18,766 nucleotides of DNA from contig CM120644.1 of the NCBI GenBank assembly GCA_051362555.1, forward strand, positions 14,263,268 through 14,282,033. The letters are read 5' to 3'. The translations under genes and the position numbers were made by a program. This DNA is from Lingula anatina (taxonomy: Eukaryota > Animalia > Brachiopoda). Shown piece after piece: positions 1,131-18,010 of the stretch (position 1 is the first letter of the stretch; each line of letters starts with the position of its first letter). The notes below the pieces were generated by a model, which was not told the origin of the DNA, ran no database searches, and worked only from the letters and a program-made list of their open reading frames with translations.

Positions 1131-1721
1131 TCAAAAAAAAGGGGGACATCTGTCCTTTAGGGACATCGAATGCTATCTGTGTTAGAAAAAATATGCTGTG
1201 CTTATCAAAATATCTTATTTATAAATGAAAATGATGAGCCATCAGTAGTAGTTATGTGTGTATGTATGTATGTGTGAGAGAGAGAAGTAAGCGAGGGGTA
1301 ACAAAGAAGTATTGTATACTGTAATTTACATTTCTTAAGTTCAATAATAAAAAAGAATGAATATTGAATGTGTGCAACATGGAGACGGAAAGACATATAT
1401 TAAAATGAAAAATAAATTAAAATGGCTTTCTAGCCTTCCAGGGATAAGTTTAAGGTCTTTCTTAGCATATGATACCTAAAAAAAATAATATGTGTAAGCT
1501 TGAATGTGGGTGCCATATGCAATGAATCCATTGATAATTTAAATATGTTTTTAATTATTAACAGATTTCAGTGCAGTTTCTCTGTTTAAGGTTATATAGA
1601 TGAACAAGATTTAACTGTCATAGCCGCGTACTATATGAAGGTATTGTTGAAACTCTCCCACACCTGTTGAATTGTGTTTTACTCAAATGTTGAATTATAC
1701 TCCTTTTTCACCAGGGGTATA

Positions 1722-1754
1722 CAGTTTTGTGCAGAGAAAGTGACATTACGGATA
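1722..1754 (+). repeat. Left terminal inverted repeat (33 bp)
   Basis: 33/33 match to the reverse complement of 17525-17557; preceded by TA. Confidence 0.96.
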
Positions 1755-1780
1755 TGCTTACTCCAAAAACGATTAAGTAG

Positions 1781-1900
1781 TCTTACGTAGACTTACGTAC
1801 GCCCCTTAGGAGGAGAAAAGAATTGTGTGAAAATCCGTAACCTAAAGGACAATGCCGACTTACGTACATCTTACTCACATCTTACGTACATCTTACACAC
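1781..1900 (+). repeat. Subterminal short repeats (consensus ATCTTACGTAC), six copies; one inverted copy at 17498-17508
   Basis: CTTACGTAG 1782, CTTACGTAC 1792, 1859 and 1881, CTTACTCAC 1870, CTTACACAC 1892; GTACGTAAGAT near the right TIR. Confidence 0.8.
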
Positions 1901-2161
1901 ATGCAGCGATGAGTAAGAAGGGGTGGGTTTATGTAAATAGGGTGACGGCGGGGTGTTTCTCGCCTTGCGGCATCACAACCATGTGTGAAAAGAGGCGTGA
2001 TATATGATCCCACCTAATTATGGGTCTTTAAATCGTCCTCTGGTACGCTGCGGCGCGACCCAAACATGACTTTGACCAGGTTAGAATGTGAAGTTTAAGA
2101 ATTTACATTGATTTTTTTATTTCTTGTACATGATACGTCTGTCAACGAGTCGGTGTGTCGC

Positions 2162-2197
2162 GGCTGGCGATACGTCACGGTATTGTGGTCTATAATA
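2162..2197 (-). promoter_or_regulatory. Possible core promoter TATTATAGA ... ATCGCCAGCC facing the left TIR
   Basis: Minus strand TATAGA begins at 2194; the A of TCGCCAG is at 2165 (29 nt later). Confidence 0.35.
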
Positions 2198-3336
2198 GTG
2201 CAGGTCCAATTTCCCGCTCACTGTGATGCAACCCAGGCGTAACTTTGATTTAAGTTAGTGCTTTTACAAAAGTGGGACTAACTTTATGATTATGGCCATT
2301 CAACTGTATAACATGAGAACAAATATTTAGCCAAAAGAAAGTCAAATAACGCTTTCGTGTAAAAAAAAACGTGCTTGTCATCCTGGCTGTGAAGTTACGC
2401 CTTTTTATTTAAAGGGAGTGGGTGTATCCAGGCTGAAACAGACTCTCCTGTCTCAATGATCAAATGCCATTTAATTCGCAATGTGCGGATTTCTGAGGGC
2501 ACATTCTTAAGATTAGGTACAATGCCGACTTATGCACATAACACGAACATCTTATTCAGGTAAAGCGACGACAGGAGGGGCTGTGGTTATGCAAAGCGTG
2601 AAATGAGGCGTGATATACTTTAGTTCGATTGATTGTGGGCCAATAAAATAAAAAAGGTAATGTACCCTGCTCCGCTGTGACGAGGCCAATACTGTGCACT
2701 TTTTAGCTATCCGTTTAAGTACATGTCTCCTTGATCAAAACAAATTCAATACAGTGAAGAATAGAAAAGGCATTAAATTGACAAACACAAGTACCCTGTA
2801 CGATGTTCGAAATTTGGCCGATGAAGGCCGCTTTTATTGTGAATCCCTCTAATAAAGGAAGTAATTTTAGAGGCTAAAATTGAATAATTGTGACAGTGCC
2901 TAATTACGTAACTTTTACGTCTAAAAAAACTTTATTTTATATATAATTCCCAAACAACAGTGCAGACGTTCTAATTTGTGGGGTTGCAAAGAGGCCGAGA
3001 AGAAAAACTCCGAACAACGACCGGACGAAGCACCTCGGTGGAGTTTGAAATAAAGGATAAGCTAATTAGCAAATTGGTGGACGGCAGATAAGCTGCGGCG
3101 TGCTACCCAACCCTACTCCCTTTTTGAGGGAGGGGGGGGTACACTCTTTTCCTTACGATAAACAGGCCTTACAGCGAGGAGTAGAGCTCTCCATTCTGCC
3201 ATCCCTAGTTAGAGAAATTTAGATGTTGAAGAAATTTCAAATGTGCCCGCCCGGTCTTTTATGAATTAGATCGGCCAATACTTACCTAACTGATTTCCTG
3301 AAATAAAAGGTATTAATTAGGTAATCACAAATAACT

Positions 3337-3477
3337 GGTCCGCATGTCTTGCTAGACCGAAAAAGTAACACAATGGAATGAATGATAAACAAAAAAATGG
3401 GTAGAAGGAGAGAATCTGCATGTCTTGCTAGATCTCTGGGAAGATAGGAAATATGAGGTCCGCATGTCTTGCTGGAC
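3337..3477 (-). repeat. Three copies of an AGCAAGACATGC(A/G)GA motif downstream of the BEN stop codon
   Basis: Plus-strand GGTCCGCATGTCTTGCTAGAC (3337), GAGAGAATCTGCATGTCTTGCTAGATCTC (3408) and ATGAGGTCCGCATGTCTTGCTGGAC (3453). Confidence 0.9.
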
Positions 3478-3494
3478 TTCAAAAATACACTTTA

Positions 3495-4877
3495 CTAATT
3501 TTGGTTGCCCGCTCTTAAATTTCTATTTGCAGTGTTCATGGCAGAAACCATTTTTGCCCAAAAGTTCTTGTTTAGTCTCTGTTGCTCCGGATAGTAACGT
3601 CCAACAGCATTTCTTATATATTGAATTCTGTTCCTGTCCAACGGACTCCTAATGTCTCCCCCTCTCTTTGATCCTTCCACATTCTTTGTGGGGTCCGTTC
3701 TCTCCTCCCTGCTGAAGAGCTGCCCCATTAGCTTCACGCAAAAATTGGTCGCCCCCGTAGAATTTTGTTTTAGGATAAGGAGCTCGTTCTCAGTGGGGAA
3801 TAACGTACGGGTCTGGGGAGGGTGGCCTTGAGAACGAGCCGGGGCAGGGGCAGGGGCAGGGGCAGGGACTGGGTATGGGTAGTGTGGAGGGAAAGGGAAG
3901 GGGGCATGGGGGTGTGCTCCTTGTATGTCAAAAAATGGGGGCTGGGGATATGCAGGGAAAGGTGGTGGGCTAGGAAAAGCAGGGGGAGGTGGGGGAGATG
4001 GGAGGGGGCTGTCTAAATTCAAACGGGATACAGGGGGCGGTGTCCCATAGTCGGTGGCTGCGGAAGGGGGGATCAGTCTGGTGGTGGTGGCAGGAGGGGT
4101 CGGTCTGGCGGTGGATGTGGTAGAGGGGGTCGGTCTGGAGGTGGAGGTGGTGGCCTGGAGAGACGGTCTAGTGGCGGTGGCGGCGGCAGGGGGGGGTGGT
4201 CTGGTGGCGGGGAAGATGGCAGGAGGGTTTGATCTGGTGGATGTGGTGGCAGGGGGGGTCGGTCTGGCGGTGGATGTGGTGGCAGGGGGGGTCGATTTGG
4301 CGGTGGATGTGGTGGCAGGGGGGGTCGGCCTGGAGGTGGATGTGGTGGCAGGGGGGGTCGGTCTGGCGGTGGATGTGGTGGCAGGGGGGGTTGGTCTGGC
4401 GGTGGATGTGGTGGCAGGGGGGGTCGGTCTGGCGGTGGATGTGGTGGCAGGGGGGGTCGGCCTGGAGGTGGATGTGGTGGCAGGGGGGGTCGATTTGGCG
4501 GTGGATGTGGTGGCAGGGGGGGTTGGTCTGGCGGTGGATGTGGTGGCAAGGGGGGTTGGTCTGGCGGTGGATGTGGTGGCAGGGGGGGTTGGTCTGGCGG
4601 TGGATGTTGTGGCAGGGGGTGGTGGTCTGGAGATGGAGGTGGTGGCAGGGGGGGTGCTGGGGGTGGAGGTGGTGGCAGGGGGGCTGCTGGGGGTGGTAGG
4701 GGGGGCTCCCAAAATTTGGTGAAGCAACTCTTCATGTCGCAGGAGTTTCTCGAATATCTTATCAATGGAATCTTGAAGTTTCACCAGAGCCGGTCTGCAC
4801 TCACACCGCAGAGGTGGGGGAAGCTGGGGTGTATTGTCATGTCCACCGGCTGGGCCAGATGAAATGCGAGTTGCCTG
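3495..4877 (-). CDS. Terminal exon of the BEN-domain gene (coiled coil, Pro/Thr repeats, BEN domain at about 3510-3790)
   Basis: Long open frame in the ORF track, entered through a TTTGCAG/CAG (NAGNAG) acceptor at 4880-4875; stop TAA at 3497-3495. Confidence 0.88.
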   Translation of the reverse strand, partial: QATRISSGPAGGHDNTPQLPPPLRCECRPALVKLQDSIDKIFEKLLRHEELLHQILGAPPTTPSSPPATTSTPSTPPATTSISRPPPPATTSTARPTPPATTSTARPTPLATTSTARPTPPATTSTAKSTPPATTSTSRPTPPATTSTARPTPPATTSTARPTPPATTSTARPTPPATTSTSRPTPPATTSTAKSTPPATTSTARPTPPATTSTRSNPPAIFPATRPPPPAAATATRPSLQATTSTSRPTPSTTSTARPTPPATTTRLIPPSAATDYGTPPPVSRLNLDSPLPSPPPPPAFPSPPPFPAYPQPPFFDIQGAHPHAPFPFPPHYPYPVPAPAPAPAPARSQGHPPQTRTLFPTENELLILKQNSTGATNFCVKLMGQLFSREERTDPTKNVEGSKRGGDIRSPLDRNRIQYIRNAVGRYYPEQQRLNKNFWAKMVSAMNTANRNLRAGNQN

Positions 4878-5343
4878 CTGCAAATTAGAAACATTTATTT
4901 AATGTTTTTTATTTGAACTCGTTTTTAAATATGGACATGGAAACAAAACTGCAGCTATGACGCAACCCCATTTGTCGTTTCATGTTCAAGGACACATTTT
5001 TACCTCAATACTGAATTAATCTCGACATTTTTAATCATACCCTCCGTTACTTATAAATATTTCAAGCTGGTGTCATAGACTCGTTGTTCTTGTGTAAGAT
5101 TCTCTTTAGTACTCACCTTTCGGCCCACTGCCTTCTTTTTAGTTTTTTGTTTCTTTGGTGGTCTTTCCCCCTCTTCTTCACCAGTTTGATCCTGAAAGAA
5201 CCCAAGCCGTAAACAGCAGTATTATTATTATTATTATTATTATTATCATTATTATTATTATTATACAGAACGAGAAAAAGTGAACAACTGCAATTGTGCA
5301 GCCTCTTAGGTAAAAATCACATATAATATATACTTGTATATAC

Positions 5344-5377
<34 letters not shown>

Positions 5378-8300
5378 GAAATCAAATTAGACGGCCCTCA
5401 CCTGTCGTCTCACTTGCTTCTTTCGCCTCACTTCCTTCGTCACCTCCGTCTCCGCCCTCACCTCCTCCTCGTCAGTTTGATTCTGAAAAACGACAATTAA
5501 ATAAATAAATGAACAAATGAATTTGTCTCTCTTTCCGTTTTATGTATGTACGAAGACAGTTCGCTAAATTAAACTTGAAAAAATAACGAATTAACTGTGA
5601 TGGGCATTAGAATGTTTTCAGTTGTCGTGTATAGCTTTTCAATAAGCTGACCATTTCTTTCTTTTTCTTTTCTATTTTGCTGTGGTAAATTGATGTCGTG
5701 TGCACGATTTTTGTCAGTGCACGGTGCTCACCTGCTCTTCCTCCACCTCCCCTTCCTCCTCCTCTGAGCTTCCAGAACTGTCAGTTTCATTGGCATAAAA
5801 CCTTTCCATTGCCATGTGTTCTGACACGGAATCTGAAAGAGGACAAAAAGAACATGGCTGGTTGTAAGTCAGGCACGTCGGCGGGTGGGGGAGGCGTTCG
5901 TCTGGTAAATTTGATAATGGTACAAAAAGGTTTCATGATGAAGGGTCCGCTTTTCAGAAAAAGAACCTTACTTTGAAATTGCTGAGAAATGTCAACGTGT
6001 GCATACGGGACAACTCGTGAAGCGACGTACAATATGAAATTAACATGTTATTCGTACAGTTTTTGGGCATCATGAACCCTTGTTAATTTCTTTAATTATT
6101 TATATTGATAGTTATCGTGGTATGGTTTTCTTGTCAGTGAGTCAGCACGCAGTACAGACTAATGGTGACTTACTTGTTGTGTGAAGAACCATTCCTTCGA
6201 CCTCCCCCAGATCCTTCCACTGGACCCTTACTCGTACACCCTGTACGATTTTCTCATCGGCCGTCAGTTCGATCGTCTTCAGGCCGGACACTGTATTATC
6301 CTGCCATCGAACGACAGCGAAGGTATCTGGAAAGAATTAAGGGTATGCGAGATTAGAAAAACATACTCATAAATGATTATAAATTTAACTCTAACTTGGC
6401 AAAATATGATTGTGTTCCGGTATTCTACAGACGCATCGCCCAATATTATAAGCGACTAACGAAAATGAATCTAGTGATGCTAAATGTAAATGGGATTGGG
6501 GGGGGGGGGGGGGGGGGTCCGCGGATGCGAAGTGTTTTAGAGGGCGAGTAACAGTAAATGTATGCAACTTTTTGTGTCGATAAAATTACATAATTTTTAT
6601 TTCCTTTTTTTCTATAATTTTTTTATCAAACCATTCTCAAAATCAATACCAACAGAGACTACCAGGATGCCCAGTCAATCCTTAGGCCTACCCTCGCCAG
6701 CAGTTATGCACGCGATTCTTAGTTATGTACGGCATTTTTTTCAAACAACTTGTTTTTCTAGCTCCGCTGACTTTAATATTGCCAAAGAAGGAAAAAATAT
6801 ATATAAAATTGAAACCAAAAATAATTTGTTTTTTTTCACCGACGTCCGACTGATCATACTCTTCAATCGGAATAACATAAACGCGAAAACTCCTAGTAAG
6901 TTTAACGGCACTCTCACGTCACATGACTGCCTACAAGTTAAACGAAGGCCATTTGTACCAAGGTAAACGCTTGGTTCATTTCCTCGAGCTTCCGGTTTTT
7001 AAGCCAATCAGTACTTCGTTGATATTTTACATTACACGTACGACTACATGTGGTATTAATGCAAAATGGCGGGAAAGTGTGCTGGAGTAGCCGTCTTGAC
7101 TTAAGCAGGAATTTCACCTCTGTTGTGTGGCTCACTTTATAGTGAAGGAGGGACCAAAATTATTATGCAAAATGGTCTGTCCGACCAGTGTTACAGATGT
7201 TTTAGGCAATTTTACTCACTGCTTTCTGTCGGAAATGAACATCAACTGCACAACTTGCGTCACGTGTGGAGTGTTTCAAAGGGGGAACAGCAGAGTAAAG
7301 AGCACAAAGCATGTTTGTTTATTATTATTTTGTAATTTACAAGAATGATTCGTAGAATTGACATTTATTTTGACAAATAAAATAATAAAAAGAAATTGCT
7401 GTTTTTGTTTCTCTGTTTTAGTTCTTACTATTGTCTAATGTTAAAAGTCATGATTTTGAAAAATGTCTTTCATTTTTCACCCCCTCCGACCTCCAAAAAA
7501 ATATTGTTTAACAAACAATAAATTAAATAAAAACTGCCCAACACTCGCTGTATAGTGTGGGTGATGTATTGTCACCATTGCATGGCTGTTGCTCACTAGT
7601 TTTTTCTGAATCTGGAAGCATGTGCCACCAGATTCGCCTGATGGACATGCCACCAGACTGGCGATCTTGTGAGAAGCAGCGCTTTATATAGGTTTGGGAC
7701 TGACCTTTGACCTGATGTACAATGTAACTCTCATTGGGTAGTGCGAATGACGCAATGTCTAGAAAGCATTGCATGGTGTCTGGTGAGTGGATTGTAACTA
7801 AGTCTTCTTGCTTTCCTTTTTTTTTTCATGTGACGGAATATGTACCCCCAGAAAATGTTGAAGAGCATATGGATCACTTATACATTTACAGGTATACTAT
7901 GTCCTCGCTTTTATGTAACTTAGCGACTGCACTGAGGATAATTTGTTGATTGGTGGTTATTATCGCTAGAACTTAGAAGTATTTAAACAAGAATCAGTTT
8001 TAACATCAACTTGAATTTTAAGTGTTCCTCTCGAGTTAACGCTGTTGCTTGACTACTCCCACAGGCTTTAAGTGTGAATTTCACTGTAACAGTACCTTTG
8101 TTAAACGCAAAAATTACAGGCCGTTCATAATTGGGGGGGGGGGATGGGGGGGGGGGAGCAACCTTCCGCATGCAATTTGTTAATTGATACAGTCATGCAT
8201 ATTTGATTTTATTGCTTTTACTTATGCAATATGTTTAATTAGTATATTATTTATCTTTGTTTTTTTACACCAATTAACATAAGTTTAAAAAATGTTTTAC

Positions 8301-10923
8301 ACATTTTCTTTTGACAGCCTGTTGACATTGTCCTGCCATCTCAGGGAAGACGCAGTAGTGGACGTTCTGGCGAACCTTTATTAGACTTAGAGTCACCTTG
8401 GGGCAGTCCCCCATAACAATTGTGCTTCTTGGGCTTGGCAATCTCATTCAGTTTTGTAGGAGAGGATGATTTGCACCAGTGGATTGACAAGTATTGACAA
8501 TCGACATTTCAGTCACACTAAACTACTGGCATGTTGTACCACACTTATTCTAAGATTGCTGAATTATCATTACTGTCTTAGGAGACCCTAGATCTCTCAA
8601 CCAGAAGAAGAGATACAGCTGTAAATTAGTTATAAGAGAAAACAACCCACTGTTGTGTATTTGGAAAAGATAACCTTGATTAGGCTTGATATTGGAGCTT
8701 GGGCTTGGAGATTCATAACTTGCTTTCACTCCTTTGAAAAGTAACTGCTTTGTTCTTTGTTCCTTTACTGTTGATAATATGATAATAAACACTCCTCTTG
8801 TCATTGTATGTTGCTGACTCTGTTTTAATTATCTTTTAAGAAAGAGAATATAGATATCAAGATTTCACATGTAGGCCTATTTACAAAGCCTTTGAATCAT
8901 TTGAACGCTAAAAGAATGGTTGAGAAATGCAATATATTAACTAGATTATGACATTAGGATGTGATGCAAATACAGTCCAGACAAGGGGCAAAGGAAGTCA
9001 GTACATGTATGGTGTACAGTACCGGACACTAAAGAGGTGTTAATAGTAATCCGTAATTATGCCGTTTCTGTAGCACATCCCACCCTCCTCGATGTTATCT
9101 TGCTAACTACATGTAGACAATAGGCGATCCTATTTAGCGAAGTTTAATTTTATGACTCGTGTTATTTTTATCCGTATAAACAACGAATGACTGTTGAACA
9201 GTTCAAGAATTTTTCAGTATTTTTCCTGCTATTACTGAGAAGAAAAAACAAAATTGTGAATCGAGTTAACAAGAAACCACGGCCGAATCCCGGGGTTAAG
9301 GGACGCGGAAGCAAAGCCGACCCCCCCCCCCCCCCACTCCCTACTGGGCGTTGGGTAAAAAAAAAAAAAGGGCGAACGGTGCCATTTGGTACGGTTAAGA
9401 ACTATGATTCAGCTAGTCTTAATTCCAACAACAGGGGACCAGAAATCTGAATGTCCGACCAAGCAAGTGTAAACATGTCGGTGTGGGACGATTTGGGGTT
9501 ATGCTTAGGCCTATATACCGTACAAATGTACAAGTTAACTTTGTAACTTTTGGTGTTTATAAAATAACATTATTCTTTATACTTACTTCACTTACTAATA
9601 CTTATATTATTTATCAAACTTTTCCTAATATCAAAACGGCAGAAACTACAATGATGTCCATTTACCCTCGCCTGCAGTTCTAAACGCGATTTTTCATTTA
9701 AAAATTGTGTAACGTCATTGAACAGTGCAAATGATGCAATGTCACCTGTGCATGGTAGGTAGTTACTGGATTATACTGAGTCTGTTGGTCCAGACAACAG
9801 ACTCGCCTGTTGGGCTGGACCAACAGACTGGCGAAAAAAGTTAATCCACCGCCTTTTATAGACCCCGGGTTCAAGTGTCCATGAACTTGGCCCATTGTGA
9901 GGCTCTTAATATCGGTGTTGTTTACTTTTCATTTTTAACCAGGAAGCAAAGATTGACTTCACGTTTTTTTTCTGTCTACCTTTATTTGAAGGAATATTTA
10001 ACCTTAGAAAATGTTGAAACGCAAATGGAGTGCTTATACATTTACAGGTATACTATGTTTAGGCCTATATATTTCTGCACATAATTTGTTAATTGGTGGT
10101 TATTATCACTAGGGAATCTCCAAACATGAATCAGTTTAAATTCCTATCAAGCTGAATTAAATTGAAAGTGTTTCTTTCAAGTTAACGCTGTCCCTGGTTC
10201 ATATCTTGTTCTGCTCCTTGACTACTGTCAGAGGCTTAAGGCGTGAATATCACTGTAACACTACCTTTGTTTAACGCACAATTACAGCACAGACATTATC
10301 GGTGGTTGGCTTATGGTGTACAATAGCCTACTAAAGAGGTGTTAATAGTAATCCGTAATTATGCCGTTTCTGTAGCACATCCCACCCTTCTCAATTTTAG
10401 TTTGCTATCTAGTCGATACCCTAAATACTTAGAGAAGTCTAACTTTATGAGTTTTTTTTACCGGTATAAGCAACGTCCGATCATGTGTAATGAACTTACA
10501 GATCACACCAGCAGCATAACAGTGTAAATTTTAACGGAACCTTATTTCTGTAATGTTTGAGTTAATTGGTGGTGGGCAGAGTCTTTTTATTCAATGATGA
10601 TGATAATAACTGTAGAAGTAGTGCTACTTTTAGTCGCACAAAAGCACATTCCTTAATTCTGTGATCTATTTTAGGATTAAGTTCTCGTATGTAAGCCAGA
10701 GCTGTGTTAAGTTATAAGAATGATGTGATTTTTTTCTTCAGGCAACAGCTAATATTGAGAAGATGTCCTGATAGACATCGTAATATTGGAGGTAAAACCT
10801 ATATCAAATATAAGCTGTTGTCTGAAGAAAAAAAATCACATCATTCTTAGGTTCTCGTATAGACCTATTTATTAACTGTACTACCGTTTACTTACCAACT
10901 TTGGACAGCTGGCGAGCAGACAT
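3495..10923 (-). CDS. BEN-domain protein (transposon cargo); predicted exons 10923-10896, 6326-6174, 5832-5732, 5482-5402, 5191-5117, 4877-3495 (about 606 aa)
   Basis: GT-AG exons join in frame: MSARQLSKVD/TFAVVRWQDNTVSG...VRVRVQWKDLGEVEGMVLHTTN/SVSEH...SSEEEEGEVEEEQ/NQTDEEEV...RRKKQVRRQ/DQTGEEEGERPPKKQKTKKKAVGRK/QATR... The C terminus (NFCVKLMGQLFSREE...NVEG...PLDRNRIQYIRNAV...FWAKMVSAMNTANR) fits the BEN-domain pattern. Exons 2-6 are well supported; exon 1 (ATG 10923, GTAAGT donor, matching phase 1) is less certain. Confidence 0.75.
4080..4680 (-). repeat. Coding 33-bp minisatellite (11-aa unit ARPTPPATTST), about 11 well-conserved copies at about 4240-4620 plus degenerate flanking copies
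   Basis: Plus-strand unit GGTCTGGCGGTGGATGTGGTGGCAGGGGGGGTC repeated head to tail with no spacers. Confidence 0.95.
5220..5264. repeat. (TAT)n microsatellite, intronic
   Basis: Directly visible. Confidence 0.95.
5347..5376. repeat. (TA)15 microsatellite, intronic
   Basis: Directly visible. Confidence 0.95.
7609..7659 (-). ncRNA. Candidate 51-nt hairpin RNA, copy A
   Basis: AGTCTGGTGGCATGTCCATCAG-GCGAAT-CTGGTGGCACATGCTTCCAGATT folds by hand into an approximately 22-bp stem (G-U pairs allowed, one mismatch, one bulge) starting at the predicted +1. Confidence 0.45.
7656..7690 (-). promoter_or_regulatory. Core promoter TATATAAA ... GATCGCCAGTC (hairpin unit A)
   Basis: Minus strand reads TATATAAAGCGCTGCTTCTCACAAGATCGCCAGTC; the predicted +1 A is at 7659, 31 nt from the first T. 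Confidence 0.6.
9779..9829 (-). ncRNA. Candidate 51-nt hairpin RNA, copy B
   Basis: AGTCTGTTGGTCCAG-CC-CAACAG-GCGAGT-CTGTTG-T-CTGGACCAACAGACT: a perfect 15-bp stem plus a 6-bp stem, starting at the predicted +1. Confidence 0.5.
9826..9860 (-). promoter_or_regulatory. Core promoter TATAAAA ... TCGCCAGTC (hairpin unit B)
   Basis: Minus strand reads TATAAAAGGCGGTGGATTAACTTTTTTCGCCAGTC; the predicted +1 A is at 9829, 31 nt from the first T. Confidence 0.6.
10715..10849. mobile_element. MITE-like palindrome (arms about 36 bp, TA at both ends)
   Basis: TAAGAATGATGTGATTTTTTTCTTCAGGCAACAGCT pairs with AGCTGTTGTCTGAAGAAAAAAAATCACATCATTCTTA. Confidence 0.65.
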
Positions 10924-11139
10924 CTCCGTGCTATAGATTTCCTCTAGGGATGATAAATTCACTAATGTCAGGTGTTGGTCTCGTATCGGCAGTTGCTGAT
11001 GCTGAGAAAGTACACTGTAAGTGTAAGCTAGTCTGTCCATCATCCCCCATTATATAATCTGCCGCAGGGAGCGTGATTGAAATCAAACTTGGCACATCTT
11101 GACAGTTTAAGTCGGACAAAAGATCTTCAGGTGATACTT

Positions 11140-12130
11140 TTAATTAGAGCTGCCATGTAAGCTAACAGTTTAATTAATGCAACGTACAGGTAAATTGAGA
11201 GTACCGATAAGATCAACTTCTTCCTATCTCTCCATCAGCGTATTTCTTCAGACTGCCTTTATTTTCGACCACTGTTTAACAAGGATAATTATCAATAGAA
11301 TAACATTGTATGGAGAAAGGATTTTTTATTCATTATTTTATTCACGAAAGAATAAGCAAACTGCTCGTTTCAGCAGAAAGATGGGAATATAAAACCATTA
11401 AGTTAAAATAAAGTTCTCAGAAAACTGCTTGCTTAAATCATTCCTTCAAGATACACGTGAACTAAATCTAGATTAAATAAGTTGTATGAATAATGTCATA
11501 AAATAATAATTGCTATATGAATATATGCCAGAAATGTCACTAATTGCGATAAATGAAATACATGTATTCTGATATAAATGCGAAAAAAAAAAAAAAAAAA
11601 AAAAAAGAAAAGAAAAAACAAAAGAAACATCCGCCGGCAGTAATAGGTGCTGGTGACAGCCCGTATCGTATGTATAACTTGAAAGAACAAGCTTACATGC
11701 ACCAAACAAAGCACAATTTAAAAAAAAAAATTGTAAAATATTTTTGGTAATGAAAGCCGGCCAGATTCCATGAAAACATTATATAACCATGCTGGCAGAA
11801 AAATGCAATAAAAACAGATTTGCAAGGTCAGCAAGTAGATGTAGTTATCGATAAAGGTTACATCTGACATAAATGAATTGCAGGAAAAAATGATAAAAAT
11901 TTTCACCACAATCAAAATAAGCCGTAAAGCCAAAATATCACATGAGGACAAAATTACAAGTAAATCGTGGCACTTCTTGACATCTTAAGTCGAACAAAAG
12001 ATTTTGGTCACACGTTTAATCAGAGCTTACCTGCATGGTAAGTTAGATTAATAACTCCAACGTACAGGTAGATTGAGATTTTCGATAAGATCACCCTCCC
12101 ATTTCTCCATCTCCGCATTTCTATAGACCG
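11140..12130. repeat. Diverged direct repeat of about 120 bp (about 11140-11255 and 12015-12130) in the intergenic region
   Basis: Both contain TTAAT.AGAGCT...CAACGTACAGGTA.ATTGAGA...CGATAAGATCA.C...TCTCCATC..CG.ATTTCT...AGAC. Confidence 0.8.
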
Positions 12131-12924
12131 TCCGATAAGATCTAAAGGGCCCTGGCACGTAGATTACACGCAATTACTACAATCGTTGATTATCTTCCTT
12201 AAATGCTTGCTTAAGCTCCGATCATACATTCTTTCGAGTCCATGTTCTTAGAAAATCCTTTTAAAATCCTTTCTACAAGCAGCTATAAAATAAAAACGCC
12301 TGTGCATTTTCTGATCGTTGTGCATTTCAAAATTTCCCAAACCAAAAACATATTAATTGGACAATGTTTGAATGTCTGTGACAAAGTGACAACTTAGGGA
12401 CAGAACATCCGAGAAGGCGTTTTGTTTATTGACTTAGATAGTAGGATGACTGGTTTTGTAGTCTATGATCATTGTGTGGATACATATAAATAATTGTGAT
12501 GGTATAATTATTTTGCCTGCAAGTACCTTCAGTTAAGGAAAATCCTAATCCTTAACTATGCTGTATTTCAATGGCTTAATACAAAAGCATTTTTTATGTG
12601 CTCGCTTCCGAACTGTTTTAAAGGTGTGGTTCATAAGTAAGACATTAATGTTACCAAAGATAACAGGTAAATTCAAATGAAGGTCTTCAAACTAATATGT
12701 AGAATCGTTTAATCCAGTTGCCGTTAGGATATTTTCTAACGAAATTGTAATGACGATAAGTGGGCGTTGATATTCGTCAGAAACCAGATGAGATCGGTGA
12801 TAAGAGATGGTGTGATTAGATAATGGGCGCGTGTTAAATGTTTAAGTCGTTTTAAGAATGGCTGTGGTCGCGAGTTTTTCGCTCCTTCATTACTGCTGGT
12901 GAAGCCATGGAACACGAGGTACTG

Positions 12925-12958
12925 TATAAAAACGCGGAAGGCAGCAGGATCGCCAGTC
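12925..12958 (+). promoter_or_regulatory. Transposase core promoter: TATAAAAA plus initiator-like GATCGCCAGTC
   Basis: TATA starts at 12925; the A of CAGT is at 12955 (30 nt later); the ATG in AAGATGC context is at 12976. Confidence 0.7.
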
Positions 12959-12975
12959 ACTGCCTATTCAACAAG

Positions 12976-15128
12976 ATGCCGTTCAACGAGTATGCTCGCC
13001 AGCGCGCCCTGAAGCTGCGAGAGGCTGGACTTGGTATAACAGCCATCAGGAGACAACTACGAGAGGAAGACGTCACCTGTTCACTAAGCTCGATATACAG
13101 GTAAGTGATTGGGACAGATCTTGCCCTTAGTGGAGCTATGTGTATTTACTCCGGTTTTAGCAAATAAAACTATATCATGAGTGACAGTGAATCTCCTGCT
13201 CTCTTCTTCAATCTCTCTTTTTTTCACCAAGGAACTCCAGACTTATAGTTTTTTTATAGAAATAAACGGATTATATGTAGATTTTCCCTTAAACCGCATA
13301 TTTCTTTTTGTACTAGCTCATTTTCTTTTTGGTCAAACGTTTTCTTTTAATACAACGACGCGTTTACAGAGCACTCTATCCCAATATTGTTTATTCTACA
13401 TGTATACATTGAACTGACAGAATTCGTATCTTTTCTAGGTTTTTTGTAAAACACAATGAAGGGTTTGGCCTTGCTGACCGGCCTAAACCAGGGAAACAGA
13501 CAACATTTACAGATGAGCACAGGGCCATCGTTGATGAAGAGATGGAGGCCAACCCTGAGCTCAGATCACATGAGCTTCGGGATATCCTGAGGGAACGTAC
13601 AGGTAATAATTATGTATTGATACCATTAAAATATTACCGTGGCGACCATCGCGCATCAAACGAAGGAAATGTTAGGAAATCTACTCCTCATTGAGCTAAA
13701 CAAGAGAAAGCACTTGGCACATAGTGGTTAACATACACCGTAATTTGTCAAATTGATTTTTTCATACAGTGAAGAAATAATAAATTATTGACTGAATGTT
13801 CATATAAATACCGCTCTTTTTCGTTCGTTTTAACAGGTCTGCTGGTGTCGTCCAGCGCTGTGCGGAGATTCAGGAAGAAGGTTGGCTGGGTGAAAAGTGC
13901 GAAGGGCTACTGCCAGCTTGTTAGAATTGTGAACCGTCCGAAAAGAGTGAACTGGTGCCGCGAGGCCCTGGCAGTAGAGGACAAGTTTGAGGACGTTGTG
14001 TTTTCTGGTAAGCAACAACCCACAGATCTTCATTAAAAAACCAACATGTACATGTATTGTTGTTTAAGATCTATTACCGGGTATTCCGCTCACTTTGTAA
14101 TCTACATGTATATATATTAGCACCGTTGTTAAAAAGGTACACAAAAATTCTTTCTTTTCTTGAATTTGCCTTTTGAGTTTCAAAATGTGTCTTATTTATC
14201 TTATTTGCGCATTCACTTCAGATGAGTGTACCGTGGAGATGGACACGAATGGTCGATACATTTTTCGGAAAGTTATCAGGGATGAAGACGGCAACGACAT
14301 TAGTCCGCCCCGCCCACTGCGCAGCAAACCGAAGCACCCCTACAAGGTCCATGTATGGGCAGGTGAGACGCTACAGTGAAATGTTTAATACTGTTGTGAT
14401 AAAAAGGGGTTATCTTTGCTTGTTGAAATGTAATGAATCAAAATTTAACAAGTGTAATTTAACACTCCGGGTCTGAAAACTAATTAGCCAAGATTGTGAC
14501 TAGGCTTTTAAAATAAAAGTGCATGTTCATGTAAACTAATGGACTGATATTATCTATTTCAGGCATTTCGCAAAGAGGCGCAACTCCCATCGTGACGTTT
14601 ACTGGCGCCATGAACAGCGAGGCTTACCAGGACATTCTTCGGGACACTCTGATTCCGTTTCTTCAAGAAAGGTAAGCGGAAATCAGCAATTAAAATAATT
14701 AAAGAGTCAGTATCGATTTAGAGTATGCATTGCCAATGTTTGTCCATCAGCTGAAAGTTCTGAAAATAGTAACACTTACGTATCTCTTCTGATTTAACCA
14801 CAGGCTTCCTCTGGGGCACAGGTTCCAGCAGGACAATGCGCCCATGCATACCAGCAGGTCGACGGCCACGTTCTTCGAGCAGCACAACATCAACTGGTTT
14901 AAGACGCCCCCCGAGAGCCCTGATCTGAACCCCATCGAGATGCTTTGGGCTGAGCTGAAGTATTTCATCAGGAACCGGGCGAAACCAAGAACGAAAGATC
15001 AACTGGTGGCTGCAATTGAGGAATTCTGGACAACCGTGGATCAGGCTAAGTGTATTAAGTATATAAACCACATTCAGAAAGTAATGCCCGAAGTAATTCG
15101 TGTCGAAGGCAGAGCCACAGGTTATTAA
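12976..15128 (+). CDS. Tc1-like DD34E transposase, 6 coding exons: 12976-13100, 13439-13602, 13837-14007, 14222-14362, 14563-14671, 14804-15128 (1035 nt, 344 aa)
   Basis: All five introns are GT-AG with compatible phases and no internal stop. The spliced protein has an HTH-like N terminus (ALKLREAGLGITAIRRQL...SLSSIYR), a DRPKPGK linker (GRPR-like), a second HTH (SSSAVRR), VVFSDE (first D), KHPYKVHVWAGIS, FQQDNAPMH (second D) and PPESPDLNPIEMLW (E), with 34 residues between the second D and E. Confidence 0.93.
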
Positions 15129-15262
15129 GTTACTGCCGTGTCTGTCCAGGTATTTTTAGGCTTTGACTTTGTAAATATGTACAATATTGTTTATGTGTTA
15201 TTTTTATGTAAATAGCTGTAGATTTTTTATAGATTATTTATATTTATTCTTTCATGTTGAAG

Positions 15263-15470
15263 GCCAGCAAGGCATGCGGCCCTCATTCCCCCCTTTTTTC
15301 CCGGAGATCTAGCAAGACATGCAGATTCTCTCCCACCCATTTCTTTTTATTTTAAAATGTTTTCCTTTCAATTGTCGTTACTTGTTGGGTCCAGCAAGAC
15401 ATGCGGACCTCATACCCACCCCCCCCCCCCCCTCGGAGATCTAGCAAGACATGCAGATTCTCTCCCACCC
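15263..15470 (+). repeat. Four copies (A-B-A-B) of the same AGCAAGACATGC motif downstream of the transposase stop codon
   Basis: CCAGCAAGGCATGCGGCCCTCAT (15264), GGAGATCTAGCAAGACATGCAGATTCTCTCCCACCC (15303 and 15435), GTCCAGCAAGACATGCGGACCTCAT (15389). Confidence 0.9.
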
Positions 15471-15680
15471 GTTTCGAACATCATACTTGTGTTTGTCACT
15501 TTATCGTTTCTTTTTTCGGCATCGTATTGAACTTTTCGATTAAGGAGACATAAAGATTATTTATATTTATTTTCTTTGTATATACTTTACTCTGTATTTA
15601 TTTTTATACACCAACATTGTATATATGTTATGTTTCATTTACATGTAAATATGTTTCGAATCATTATTTTATTTTACATT

Positions 15681-15720
15681 TATTTATATTTATATTTATA
15701 TTTATATTTATATATATTTA
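15681..15720. repeat. (TATATT)n simple repeat
   Basis: Directly visible. Confidence 0.85.
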
Positions 15721-16904
15721 GTGTAGTTTACAGTTTACAGCTTTACAATAAGGGGGACGATTGAATAGATCTACTCTCCTGTCGCGCCATCACCAGATTC
15801 TGTAATGGAAAGCGCTGCTGCATTTTTCGCAGGTTCGACGTCATTTTCATAACAGCATCCGGTGATGGGACGTCATAAGTGCAGATCTGTTCAAACTCTT
15901 TCTTACTGGTTGGGCATGTATAGATAGTGTATATATTTATCATATGTATGAAATTTTTAATTCAAATTTTTAATTTATAGAGCAGCGCTTAATTCCACTT
16001 TTTCGTGGCAGTGCCTTGGCTATTAGACGGACATGTCTCTGGCTTGGCCTGACTACAGGAACGTGAGTGTTGTTTTTAAATATGCAGATATGGGTAATCT
16101 CATAAAATTCCGCACCACCGGTGCATTCGGGGTATTGTGAAATTACCGTGACCCATTAACACTTAATCACCCTCTGCAGTGTGTCAGAAGGCATGTAATA
16201 CAACTGTAAGGTGAACGGCTATCTATTTCGATGTACAGTTTATAATGTTAAATTCTTAATCTGTAACTCTTATTATTAGCATATAGCCGTTTGTGTTATC
16301 AATCAGGCTCTGCAAAGGTTCTGCAACCTGAGGGTTCCTTCTGATCTGTGTTCTAAACCTATTATTGTTCCCCTGCAGTTATGACAAGTTATTTGCACAA
16401 AGAAATCTAACCTATCATTCCGTAATTTGACGTACGAGTCCATGTATTTTATTGTCGTCGTCTTAAAGTCCAATTGAGTAGTCCGCGCAGCTTCATAATT
16501 AAAAAAAAAAAGAATAACGTGTTTGGATAGATAACCCGGTCCCTGTTGTTCCTCATGATCTAAAAATAATGTTAAAAGGTTAGGGCAAAGCCAGGTTAAA
16601 CTGCAATGAATTATATGTTAAAAATTTATAATAGTGTGAGCATTTCAATGTAATAATTTGAGCTGAAATTGACACCTAGGAAAAACGTAAAATACGCCGT
16701 CTTATTTAGGTTATGTTTCCTTTATTTTCAACATTCAGAATCAACAACACATTGGGATTTTAAAATTTACAACACAATTTACAGCAAAAAAATGTAACTA
16801 TGTGCGCAGCAAAAATGCCTGTTGAAACAATTTTAGGAGTGACATTAAATTGTAACCGAGCCTTGAGAACCAAGACATCGTGAAGAAAGAAAATGCTATC
16901 TTAA

Positions 16905-17220
16905 ACCTAGGTTCCAACTACGTTTTTGACGCACGGTTTTTAGGTTCATTGCGTCCGTCTGGGACGTAGCTAAATCGCAGGGAAGGAATCAAGTAAAGCC
17001 TAGGTTGGGCTGCTTTGTGTGGTCTACGGCCAAAAGATGGGAAAACGTGGGAGTTCGTGCGTGAGGAATACGTCCATCGTGCGACTTTTGGAGGACACAA
17101 ACAGCACGTAGGAACTTTTTGACATGATCCAAAGCCGCTACGTGCGATCTTGCTACGTCCTAACCGGACGCAAGGAACCTAAAAACCGTGCGTGAAAAAC
17201 GTAGTTGTGGGGCCTAGGCT
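16905..17220. mobile_element. Nested MITE with about 65-70-bp TIRs, flanked by TTAA (Kolobok- or piggyBac-type target)
   Basis: CCTAGG...CAACTACGTTTTTGACGCACGGTTTTTAGGTTCATTGCGTCCGTCTGGGACGTAGC pairs with GCTACGTCCTAACCGGACGCAAGGAACCTAAAAACCGTGCGTGAAAAACGTAGTTG...CCTAGG; TTAA at 16901-16904 and 17221-17224. Confidence 0.8.
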
Positions 17221-17524
17221 TTAAATACTATCTGAAGGACGAACACGATGAAAGCGTGCCACATATAGATGAACAATGATTGTGTGCAGTCGGGCAGATA
17301 ATCAGATAAACGGCTGGGACTTGGGGGATGACAATTAAAGCTGTCACTCAGCAGCATCAGTAGTGGGAGAGGTGGTAATTAAGGCTGTCACTCATCACCT
17401 CAAACGAGGCAAACTCAACTTATTTCCCTAAACCCAGCTGACTTACTCTAAGCATTGTGTCCTATTGTGTTTACCCTGTAATTATGTGCAATTTGCGGTA
17501 CGTAAGATTAGGGTGGTTTATCCG

Positions 17525-17557
17525 TATCCGTAATGTCACTTTCTCTGCACAAAACTG
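17525..17557 (-). repeat. Right terminal inverted repeat (33 bp)
   Basis: TATCCGTAATGTCACTTTCTCTGCACAAAACTG followed by TA. Confidence 0.96.
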
Positions 17558-18010
17558 TAGTCACTATCCTGGATCTAATAACAAAATAATATAAACCTAT
17601 ATAAACCTGGCAGAAATTATGATAATAACCCGGATCTTTTCAGTGGGGGGAAATTGTGAATTTTACAGATACTTTCATTTTTTAAGTCTTAAATTGCTTA
17701 AAATTAGAACATTCCTTTTAAGTGGTAGAACGTACAAAATTAAAAGCAGGCTACTAAAGGAAAAGCACCACTTTAATGCAATATAGAAATATAATTTTGT
17801 GTTTATAAAATTTTTTATCTGAAAGTTTGATTAATTTTTCCCTTTGAAGTACCATAGAACATTGAAAATAAAAGGTGAAAAAATGGGGGGGGGCATATTT
17901 TGTAAGTATACCATCTATTTCTTTTTTTTTTTATATAAATATTAATTTATCCATTTCCCTGGCTGTTATTATTTGATTTGACCTTTTAAATTTTTTTTTT
18001 TACAGCTGAA

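Follow-up and report, generated by a model that had tools for sequence, protein, structure and literature searches.

Two TATA-led hairpin units within a Tc1/mariner cargo gene of Lingula anatina: candidate Drosha-independent small-RNA genes

What are two small hairpins, each opening on a predicted transcription start, doing in the intron of a gene that travels in a transposon? The question arises in a stretch of 18,766 nucleotides (nt) from the brachiopod Lingula anatina (NCBI GenBank assembly GCA_051362555.1, contig CM120644.1, positions 14,263,268 to 14,282,033 of the forward strand), hereafter called the window. Most of the window is a Tc1/mariner element of 15.8 kb, which is large for this superfamily. 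The element carries an intron-split transposase gene and an intact six-exon gene for a BEN-domain protein, transcribed away from each other, and the two hairpins, H1 and H2, lie in the 4.6-kb intron (10895-6327) that separates the first two coding exons of the BEN gene, where the initial annotation of this DNA had placed them. The hairpin units are a real feature and, judged from their sequence, look to be under selection. That they are RNA genes, the core claim that our preferred reading and its intact-RNA rival have in common, is probable when the two are taken jointly. Our preferred reading itself is held tentatively, with somewhat less than even confidence: the units would be element-encoded, Drosha-independent hairpin RNA genes whose products are likely diced, and H1 is predicted to limit BEN.

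Both units have a promoter-like anatomy. On the minus strand, a TATA box (TATATAAA in H1 and TATAAAAG in H2) begins at -31 of the AGTCTG start at 7659 and 9829, exactly as first described, and in both units this start falls within a match to the initiator motif YYANWYY (CCAGTCT). Folding bore out the 51-nt hairpin proposed to follow each start, with -31.0 kcal/mol (z -7.05) for H1 and -34.2 kcal/mol (z -7.77) for H2; none of 200 shuffles was as good, and these are the two best loci among 12,478 scanned 51-nt windows. The window has 66 matches to TATAWAWR; when the 53 nt that begin 31 nt after each match are folded, the two units give -34.3 and -31.0 kcal/mol, and none of the remaining 64 gives a value better than -13.7. 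Each stem has 22 columns with 21 possible pairs (the 21-23 base pairs originally given hold at the lower figure, not up to 23) and is followed directly by a conserved CA. The shared apical sequence CAGGCGARTCTG with its trailing CAG, the four stem words quoted for the two hairpins, and a CCATGCA..GGTGACA.T.CATCA block, located at +75 to +98, were all found where the initial annotation had claimed them. H1 folds 8.3 kcal/mol better on the minus strand and H2 shows no strand preference. Both have the shape of a precursor microRNA (pre-miRNA), that is, a short single hairpin of about 22 pairs with a short 3' overhang, taking the presumed 3' end as the true one.

Several more familiar identities were considered and rejected. 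A canonical Drosha-processed primary microRNA (miRNA) extends past the pre-miRNA by a lower stem of some 11 pairs, and folds of 130 nt show no lower stem for H2 and a loose, interrupted extension for H1. A small nuclear RNA (snRNA) with an Sm site would need a closing G and a 3' stem, both missing here, and a downstream promoter element was rejected from the sequence. The hairpins are flanked by GCC and CAG in both units, with no TA or direct repeat, so that an origin as a miniature inverted-repeat transposable element (MITE) or foldback insertion was likewise discarded. Rfam covariance models gave no match to either unit at E values up to 5.

How far does each unit extend? The hairpin and the block behind it had been recognized earlier; an extent of about 130 nt and an end at a run of T had been missed. 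Identity between H1 and H2 is 82% over the TATA box, 41% over the spacer (-20 to -5, shuffle level), 93% at -4 to +10, 68% over +1 to +53, and 63% over +54 to +131 (0 of 300 shuffles as good). It lies at shuffle level outside these limits, namely 45% at -90 to -32 (143 of 300 shuffles as good) and 43% past +131 (239 of 300). The tail contains a stem-loop, GGUGA-N7-UCAYY, at +84 to +100, and the first run of at least four T, a T5, lies at +127 (H1) and +126 (H2), a situation shared by 2.3% of start points in the window. As read from this alignment, the conserved unit is the TATA box, the initiator, and +1 to +131, about 130 nt in all, ending at the aligned T5 run. Farther upstream, H1 has a perfect DR1-type repeat and H2 has two RGKTCA half-sites in the matching zone (9868-9887), which we take to be nuclear-receptor-type sites. 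Lying just upstream of the two TATA boxes, such half-sites may link expression to a particular tissue, for example the gonad. In a deeply covered class of H2 copies (described below), changes add a further half-site upstream of H2.

The aligned end brings in a first alternative, which we consider unlikely: an intact RNA of 126-130 nt, running from +1 to the T-run and transcribed by polymerase III from the TATA box, whose hairpin acts by its shape as a decoy or platform for proteins that bind double-stranded RNA, such as Dicer, much as adenovirus VA RNA or snaR-A would. The similarity of H1 and H2 stops right after the T5 run (63% to 43%), which is also the first run of four or more T after either start, and the deepest class of H2 copies retains a T4. 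In that class the tail stem-loop even gains pairs (places 9741 and 9731), and the letters of the main stem change freely with pairing kept, as if only shape mattered. Yet the two T-runs are homologous and hence not independent, and the run is broken in a low-depth class, which leaves a loose end. Nor is a shared upstream element apparent between the units (the shuffle-level 45% given above), or a conserved A or B box when they are inspected by eye against the consensus. The initiator and the DR1 repeat indicate polymerase II, and no pile of reads marks either end in the non-polyadenylated (non-polyA) run. A type 2 polymerase III promoter with A and B boxes was rejected, as a partial A-box occurs in the window's H2 only and is lost in the deepest class, and H1 has no B box.

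Is the pairing itself maintained? On a structure-guided alignment of the two stems, which is itself fitted to the structure, pairing survives at all seven pairs in which H1 and H2 differ in both partners (p 0.003 if the changes are independent). Further evidence comes from other copies of H2. A search of public sequencing runs matched 10 DNA runs, with no RNA run among the matches listed and no small-RNA library among the 20 runs listed; H2 copies were taken over 9670-9910 from three of these (X1, X2, and X4) and from the RNA run X16. X1 and X2 carry the window's own sequence and are hence not independent of it. Three classes besides that of the window were found: a deep class, a low-depth class, and an allele with 8 differences. 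Depth, a rough guide only to copy number, is 312, 120, and 361 for the deep class, 90, 66.5, and 40.5 for window-type contigs, and 44.6 and 16.4 for the low-depth class, placing the deep class at 1.8-8.9 times the window type in the three runs. The deep class keeps the TATA box, the initiator, and the hairpin. Out of 22 pairs, it retains 19 or 18 (two subtypes), the low-depth class about 18 (hand count), and the allele 19. The deep class has two compensated pairs, 13-39 and 14-38, of which the low-depth class has 14-38 alone; because 14-38 is common to two classes and 13-39 is not, these are separate events. Two compensated pairs among 8 random stem changes would be expected with p 0.012-0.022.

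Variability was counted over the four H2 classes, with two differences lying outside the display and place 9879 (RNA reads only) left out. No variable place falls on the TATA box (0 of 13) or on +1 to +12 (0 of 12), and the upstream region is well kept (3 of 50). A 5p seed would be invariant within H2 (0 of 12) and differ by one base in H1, and the 3' arm varies at 10 of 22 places versus 4 of 23 in the 5' arm (p 0.057). Taken as sequence evidence, the seven double changes and the two compensated pairs support selection on pairing. Selection on the TATA box and initiator is supported as well, because the paralogues are 82% and 93% identical there amid flanks at background level and no place over the TATA box varies.

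According to our preferred reading, the TATA box and initiator would direct transcription to start at the first base of the 22-pair hairpin (7659 and 9829). Polymerase II is favored because of the initiator, the orientation of TATAAAA, and the DR1 repeat, and polymerase III is left possible because of the T-run. Drosha would not be needed to free the hairpin: transcription could end early, Integrator-type cleavage could take place, or the 75-nt tail could be trimmed. A Dicer cut would then yield a guide of roughly 22 nt. The 3' arm is predicted to serve as this guide, starting from a U that is invariant in all five sequence classes (+30 in H1 and +31 in H2). Geometry of a Dicer substrate without a lower stem (22 columns and a 6-nt loop), pairing kept in the five classes, and the G-U pairs and strand preference of H1 all point in this direction. 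The required machinery, namely Dicer, TARBP2, XPO5, and Ago/Piwi, is listed as present in Lingula (PMC4793324, Table 1). Capped pre-miRNAs made directly at a polymerase II start yield mainly the 3p strand, as stated in an excerpt of PMC6009592, and a short signal downstream of such hairpins can direct Integrator to cut them, as stated in an excerpt of PMC4526738.

The H1 guide would then repress the BEN mRNA of its own element. In the last BEN exon, a 33-nt coding repeat holds, depending on where the guide starts, 14 eight-base (+30), 16 seven-base (+29), or 15 six-base (+31) sites for the predicted 3p seed of H1, and none on the opposite strand. Only 2% of 5,000 shuffles reached 10 sites in the four plausible registers. 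The targeting of repeat-rich coding regions by miRNAs is reportedly the subject of published work, and we regard the seed match of H1 to the BEN repeat, which the initial annotation had overlooked, as suggestive. Seed 2-7 of the H1 5p strand has 13 sites in the BEN exon, and the corresponding 3p seed of one H2 allele has 6 BEN sites (40 of 4096 six-mers reach 6). A duplex scan of the arms against the window found no extended complement better than those of shuffled arms. Carried further, the two units could form a transposon cassette of natural short hairpin RNA (shRNA) genes, in which the H1 guide limits the BEN cargo and the seed of the H2 guide changes from copy to copy; this larger proposal is rather doubtful. 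The fast-changing 3' arm of H2 would be a guide switching targets between copies, and within the cassette proposal such a change would resemble an arms race with host targets.

What do RNA reads tell us? Four of nine RNA runs were examined over 6100-11150 (150-nt paired libraries, of which 6-25 in 100 was read). X16 covers 29 of 30 bins, with first mates mostly on the plus strand, which in most stranded libraries means minus-strand RNA. In the polyA and oligo-dT runs, the four bins that span H1 and H2 have a depth of 0-0.4. The 43 X16 reads over H2 all match the window at less than 95% and carry deep-class letters. Over H2, X16 depth runs at 13-19 on the upstream side of +1 and at 13-28 on the downstream side. 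The RNA over the units is read-through, most simply explained as unspliced BEN pre-mRNA. From these libraries, a long or polyadenylated transcript that begins at the H1 or H2 start is unlikely to be abundant; on an RNA of 53 or 22 nt they say little.

These data bear directly on a second alternative, in which the units are internal polymerase II promoters of longer transcripts and the hairpin is a leader, comparable to the trans-activation response (TAR) hairpin, for pausing, elongation, or translation. TATA at -31, the initiator, and the DR1 repeat are polymerase II features; a donor-like site stands at about +163 of H2, in a stretch (9542-9694) that has a diverged counterpart at 6563-6720, upstream of BEN exon 2, and depth is slightly higher downstream of +1 (20-28) than upstream. 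However, the near-empty polyA and oligo-dT bins, a conservation that ends at +131, the lack of a matching donor at about +163 of H1, and the lack of spliced joints from either unit among the joints listed make this the least probable of the explanations considered here.

Observations of several kinds weigh against our preferred reading of short, diced hairpin RNAs, and we gather them here. X16 depth over H1 (3.2-4.2) and H2 (6.3-7.2) is similar to the rest of the intron, its reads cross the TATA box and the T-run of H2, and the X16 listing has no pile-up of starts or ends at the H2 +1 or T-run, although a 53-nt RNA would be lost from 150-nt libraries. A bare pre-miRNA leaves the conserved 75-nt tail unexplained. 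As for the target, the seed match of H1 was noticed post hoc (p about 0.02), 20% of shuffles reach the BEN-site level when any register is allowed, pairing beyond the seed is poor (-14.8 kcal/mol), and four of five H2 3p seeds have no BEN-exon site, as counted against the BEN gene of the window and not that of their own copy. Among the changes in the stems, five of the seven double ones adjoin each other (pairs 11-15), and of nine one-sided changes in the two classes whose position 36 is G, six break a pair. Variable places are commoner in the hairpin (16 of 51) than in its flanks (21 of 145; p 0.012), and the hairpin's least conserved part is the predicted 3p seed region (+30 to +39, 7 of 10 places variable). 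A conserved seed, by which miRNA families are recognized, is thus lacking in the 3p arm, the reverse of ordinary miRNA families. Two interpretations in the initial annotation survive in part: selection on RNA structure holds insofar as pairing is kept (the seven double changes and the two compensated pairs), and not as a strict constraint, given the broken one-sided changes; the comparison with miR-320 fits in geometry and fails in the variable seed region. The variation of the H2 3' arm fits a target-changing guide, a passenger opposite a 5p guide, an RNA with constraint on shape only, or a mutation hot spot.

Could the palindromes act at the DNA level, or be neutral? In this third alternative, which we deem quite unlikely, they are protein-binding or cruciform sites beside a promoter, or quasi-palindromes maintained by template switching in replication, which mimics compensatory change. 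Template switching can repair stems and make contiguous double changes in one step (as described in part of PMC8794818), which would suit the run of adjacent changes at pairs 11-15. In one allele, five of the 8 differences crowd into 11 nt of the 3' arm (p 0.0004), as at a hot spot. Both hairpins are, in addition, direct repeats of a short palindromic module, H2 folds alike on both strands, and the element itself encodes a BEN protein that could bind such sites. On the other hand, mismatches should vanish if one arm were copied from the other, yet G-U pairs and isolated mismatches are still present (U-U at 8-44 in H1 and two H2 classes), and the variation lies mostly in the 3' arm. A binding site would preserve letters rather than pairing; the stem starts on the initiator A in both paralogues; and no target-site duplication or TA flank marks a tiny insertion.

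How do the units compare with known systems? Short structured RNAs that can be diced without Drosha include adenovirus VA RNA; the units have no sequence similarity to it or to snaR-A (the Rfam scan gave no match), and their own polymerase and ends are predicted only. With snaR-A, as portrayed in an excerpt of PMC8127991, they would share a short structured RNA of about 120-160 nt that is diceable without Drosha. Closest in shape are the pre-miRNAs with a 7-methylguanosine (m7G) cap, or transcription start site (TSS) miRNAs, such as miR-320 and miR-344 as well as miR-484 (PMC6009592, in excerpt): hairpins of about 50-55 nt whose first base is the predicted polymerase II start, with no Drosha lower stem and a 3p guide. 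Those are mammalian host loci, whereas the present units sit duplicated in an invertebrate DNA transposon, have a 75-nt tail with a T-run and a 3p seed that is not conserved, and their cap, ends, and Ago loading are predicted only. Rice miR820 in CACTA transposons (PMC3459959 and PMC6719617, both in excerpt) is a small-RNA hairpin that travels as the cargo of a DNA transposon, as the present units would. There, the setting is a plant and the target is the host gene OsDRM2; here, it is an animal Tc1/mariner element, each hairpin has its own TATA box and initiator, and the sole candidate target found in the window is the element's own BEN mRNA.

Viruses and a parasitic plant offer further parallels, each taken from an excerpt of the report cited. 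The polymerase III pre-miRNAs of bovine leukemia virus (BLV; PMC4267658) come, as the present units may, from compact genes on a mobile element; the pre-miRNA is itself the primary transcript and is independent of Drosha. They rely on type II internal promoters, in contrast to an upstream TATA box, no conserved A or B box, and a T-run 75 nt past the hairpin. For the Integrator-cut pre-miRNAs of Herpesvirus saimiri (PMC4526738), a signal after the hairpin could similarly set the 3' end, and at +55 to +60 of H1 there is a run of six A (A6); H2, however, has no TNAAAANT match there, and an upstream snRNA is missing. The trans-species miRNA loci of Cuscuta (10.1101/2022.07.06.498962) are short hairpin genes of a parasite with their own U6-like promoter of the small-RNA type, but those of this parasitic plant share an upstream element and none is seen between H1 and H2. 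With a 3p seed that is not conserved, no A and B boxes, and a cap, ends, and Argonaute loading that are predicted only, the units can be assigned to none of the TSS-miRNA, miR820, BLV, and snaR-A families, coming closest in geometry to capped pre-miRNAs and in cargo role to miR820.

Searches for relatives and for earlier descriptions gave little. A strict pattern of the unit had 0 matches in viral and metagenome contigs. Loci found with a relaxed pattern (75 + 2) were rejected as homologues and taken as chance, having no TATA at -36 to -20, a best fold of -24.0 kcal/mol (mean -13.9), and no BLAST match to the window. We found no description of the element or the hairpins in the literature, with subscription journals and MirGeneDB tables outside the scope, so that prior annotation is possible; the main text of MirGeneDB 2.1 (supplements and database outside the scope) is without Lingula.

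The positions of the features are collected in Table 1.

Table 1. Coordinates of the hairpin units, their host gene, and the surrounding element (window positions; - and + in the text and remarks are relative to the predicted start of each unit)
Feature	Positions	Strand	Remarks
TATA box of unit H1, TATATAAA, begins at -31	7683..7690	-	Only listed change in RNA reads from other copies (7683) leaves TATATAA intact
Hairpin H1, 51 nt, 21 of 22 pairs incl. 3 G-U, one bulge	7609..7659	-	Predicted +1 = 7659
Conserved 3' block of H1, +54 to +131	7529..7606	-	Stem-loop 7576-7560; first T-run = T5 at 7533-7529
Perfect DR1-type repeat AGGTCAAAGGTCA, -54 to -42 of H1	7701..7713	-	Sole match in window; 1 of 200 shuffles has one
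Third, relic 3' block, promoter and hairpin missing	7723..7805	-	Just upstream of H1
TATA box of unit H2, TATAAAAG, begins at -31	9853..9860	-	No variable place listed at 9848-9860 among four copy classes
Hairpin H2, 51 nt, 21 of 22 pairs, 6-nt loop	9779..9829	-	Predicted +1 = 9829; first base in initiator match 9831-9825
Conserved 3' block of H2, +54 to +131	9699..9776	-	Stem-loop 9746-9730; first T-run = T5 at 9704-9700
BEN-domain cargo gene	3495..10923	-	Pfam BEN above cut-off; hosts H1 and H2 in first coding intron
33-nt coding repeat in last BEN exon	4086..4677	-	14 8-mer sites for predicted H1 3p seed, on mRNA strand
Intron-split Tc1-type transposase gene	12856..15128 (start approximate)	+	DDE_3 in last exon 14793-15128, E 1.9e-13
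Whole Tc1/mariner-type element	1720..17559	 	TA + CAG ends; 35-nt perfect inverted match 1720-1754 / 17525-17559, TA included

The BEN gene has 1821 coding nt in six exons (10923-10896, 6326-6174, 5832-5732, 5482-5402, 5191-5117, and 4877-3495), with GT-AG borders and all in phase. The junction of intron 10895-6327 is absent among the RNA-read joints listed (56 further joints lie outside the listing), and a 66-nt joint at 10993/11060 was rejected as an upstream intron for its non-canonical ends; it may be a DNA deletion in other copies. A homologue search with the BEN C-terminus gave nothing at E 0.001, and a protein atlas led to BEN clusters only. The first coding exon with its donor (10890-10923) is matched by 76-79 reads of run X17 whose sequence differs on either side; the exon is also part of a related gene or element family that is expressed. 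Relatives of the transposase are about 60% identical.

Behind the stop codons of the two genes lie what appear as subterminal inverted repeats, three copies at 3337-3482 (-) after BEN and four at 15257-15475 (+) after the transposase, each set in sense orientation relative to its own gene. Each repeat is a small stem-loop around AGCAAGACATGC with a bulge (-9 to -12 kcal/mol); the lower stems differ in sequence with pairing kept, and the opposite strand folds equally well or better in six of seven. They are candidates for a shared signal in the 3' untranslated region (UTR) or for a DNA-binding array. Seven-base matches between these 3' UTR repeats and the middles of the hairpin stems were rejected as targeting, since they would need an unusual start at +9.

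H1 and H2 sit within diverged internal duplications of the element. Further diverged non-coding duplications within it, of 70-78% identity, are 11090-11253/11968-12128, 7825-8119/9981-10287, and 9008-9185/10312-10475, and are candidate regulatory blocks. A separate hairpin of 135 nt (10715-10849, z -13.9) has 21-nt perfect arms and TA at both sides and is MITE-like; it is probably present elsewhere too, because it has deep coverage on both strands in the oligo-dT run. A nested foldback element occupies 16901-17224, with arms of 65-82 nt that are 85-89% complementary. Outside the element, a zf-RVT fragment of a non-long-terminal-repeat (non-LTR) retrotransposon lies beyond the left end at 839-1129, and the first exon of an asparagine synthetase gene, 100% identical over 83 amino acids to a Lingula anatina protein, lies at the right end of the window.

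In short, what would it mean if the hairpin units were what we tentatively take them to be? The excerpted part of a 2019 review (PMC6719617) presents three anti-silencing mechanisms encoded by transposons, all from plants. If true, a promoter-driven, duplicated small-RNA cassette in an animal Tc1/mariner element would bring RNA-based self-control or counter-defense to animal DNA transposons, and it would place promoter-born, Drosha-independent hairpins in a spiralian.

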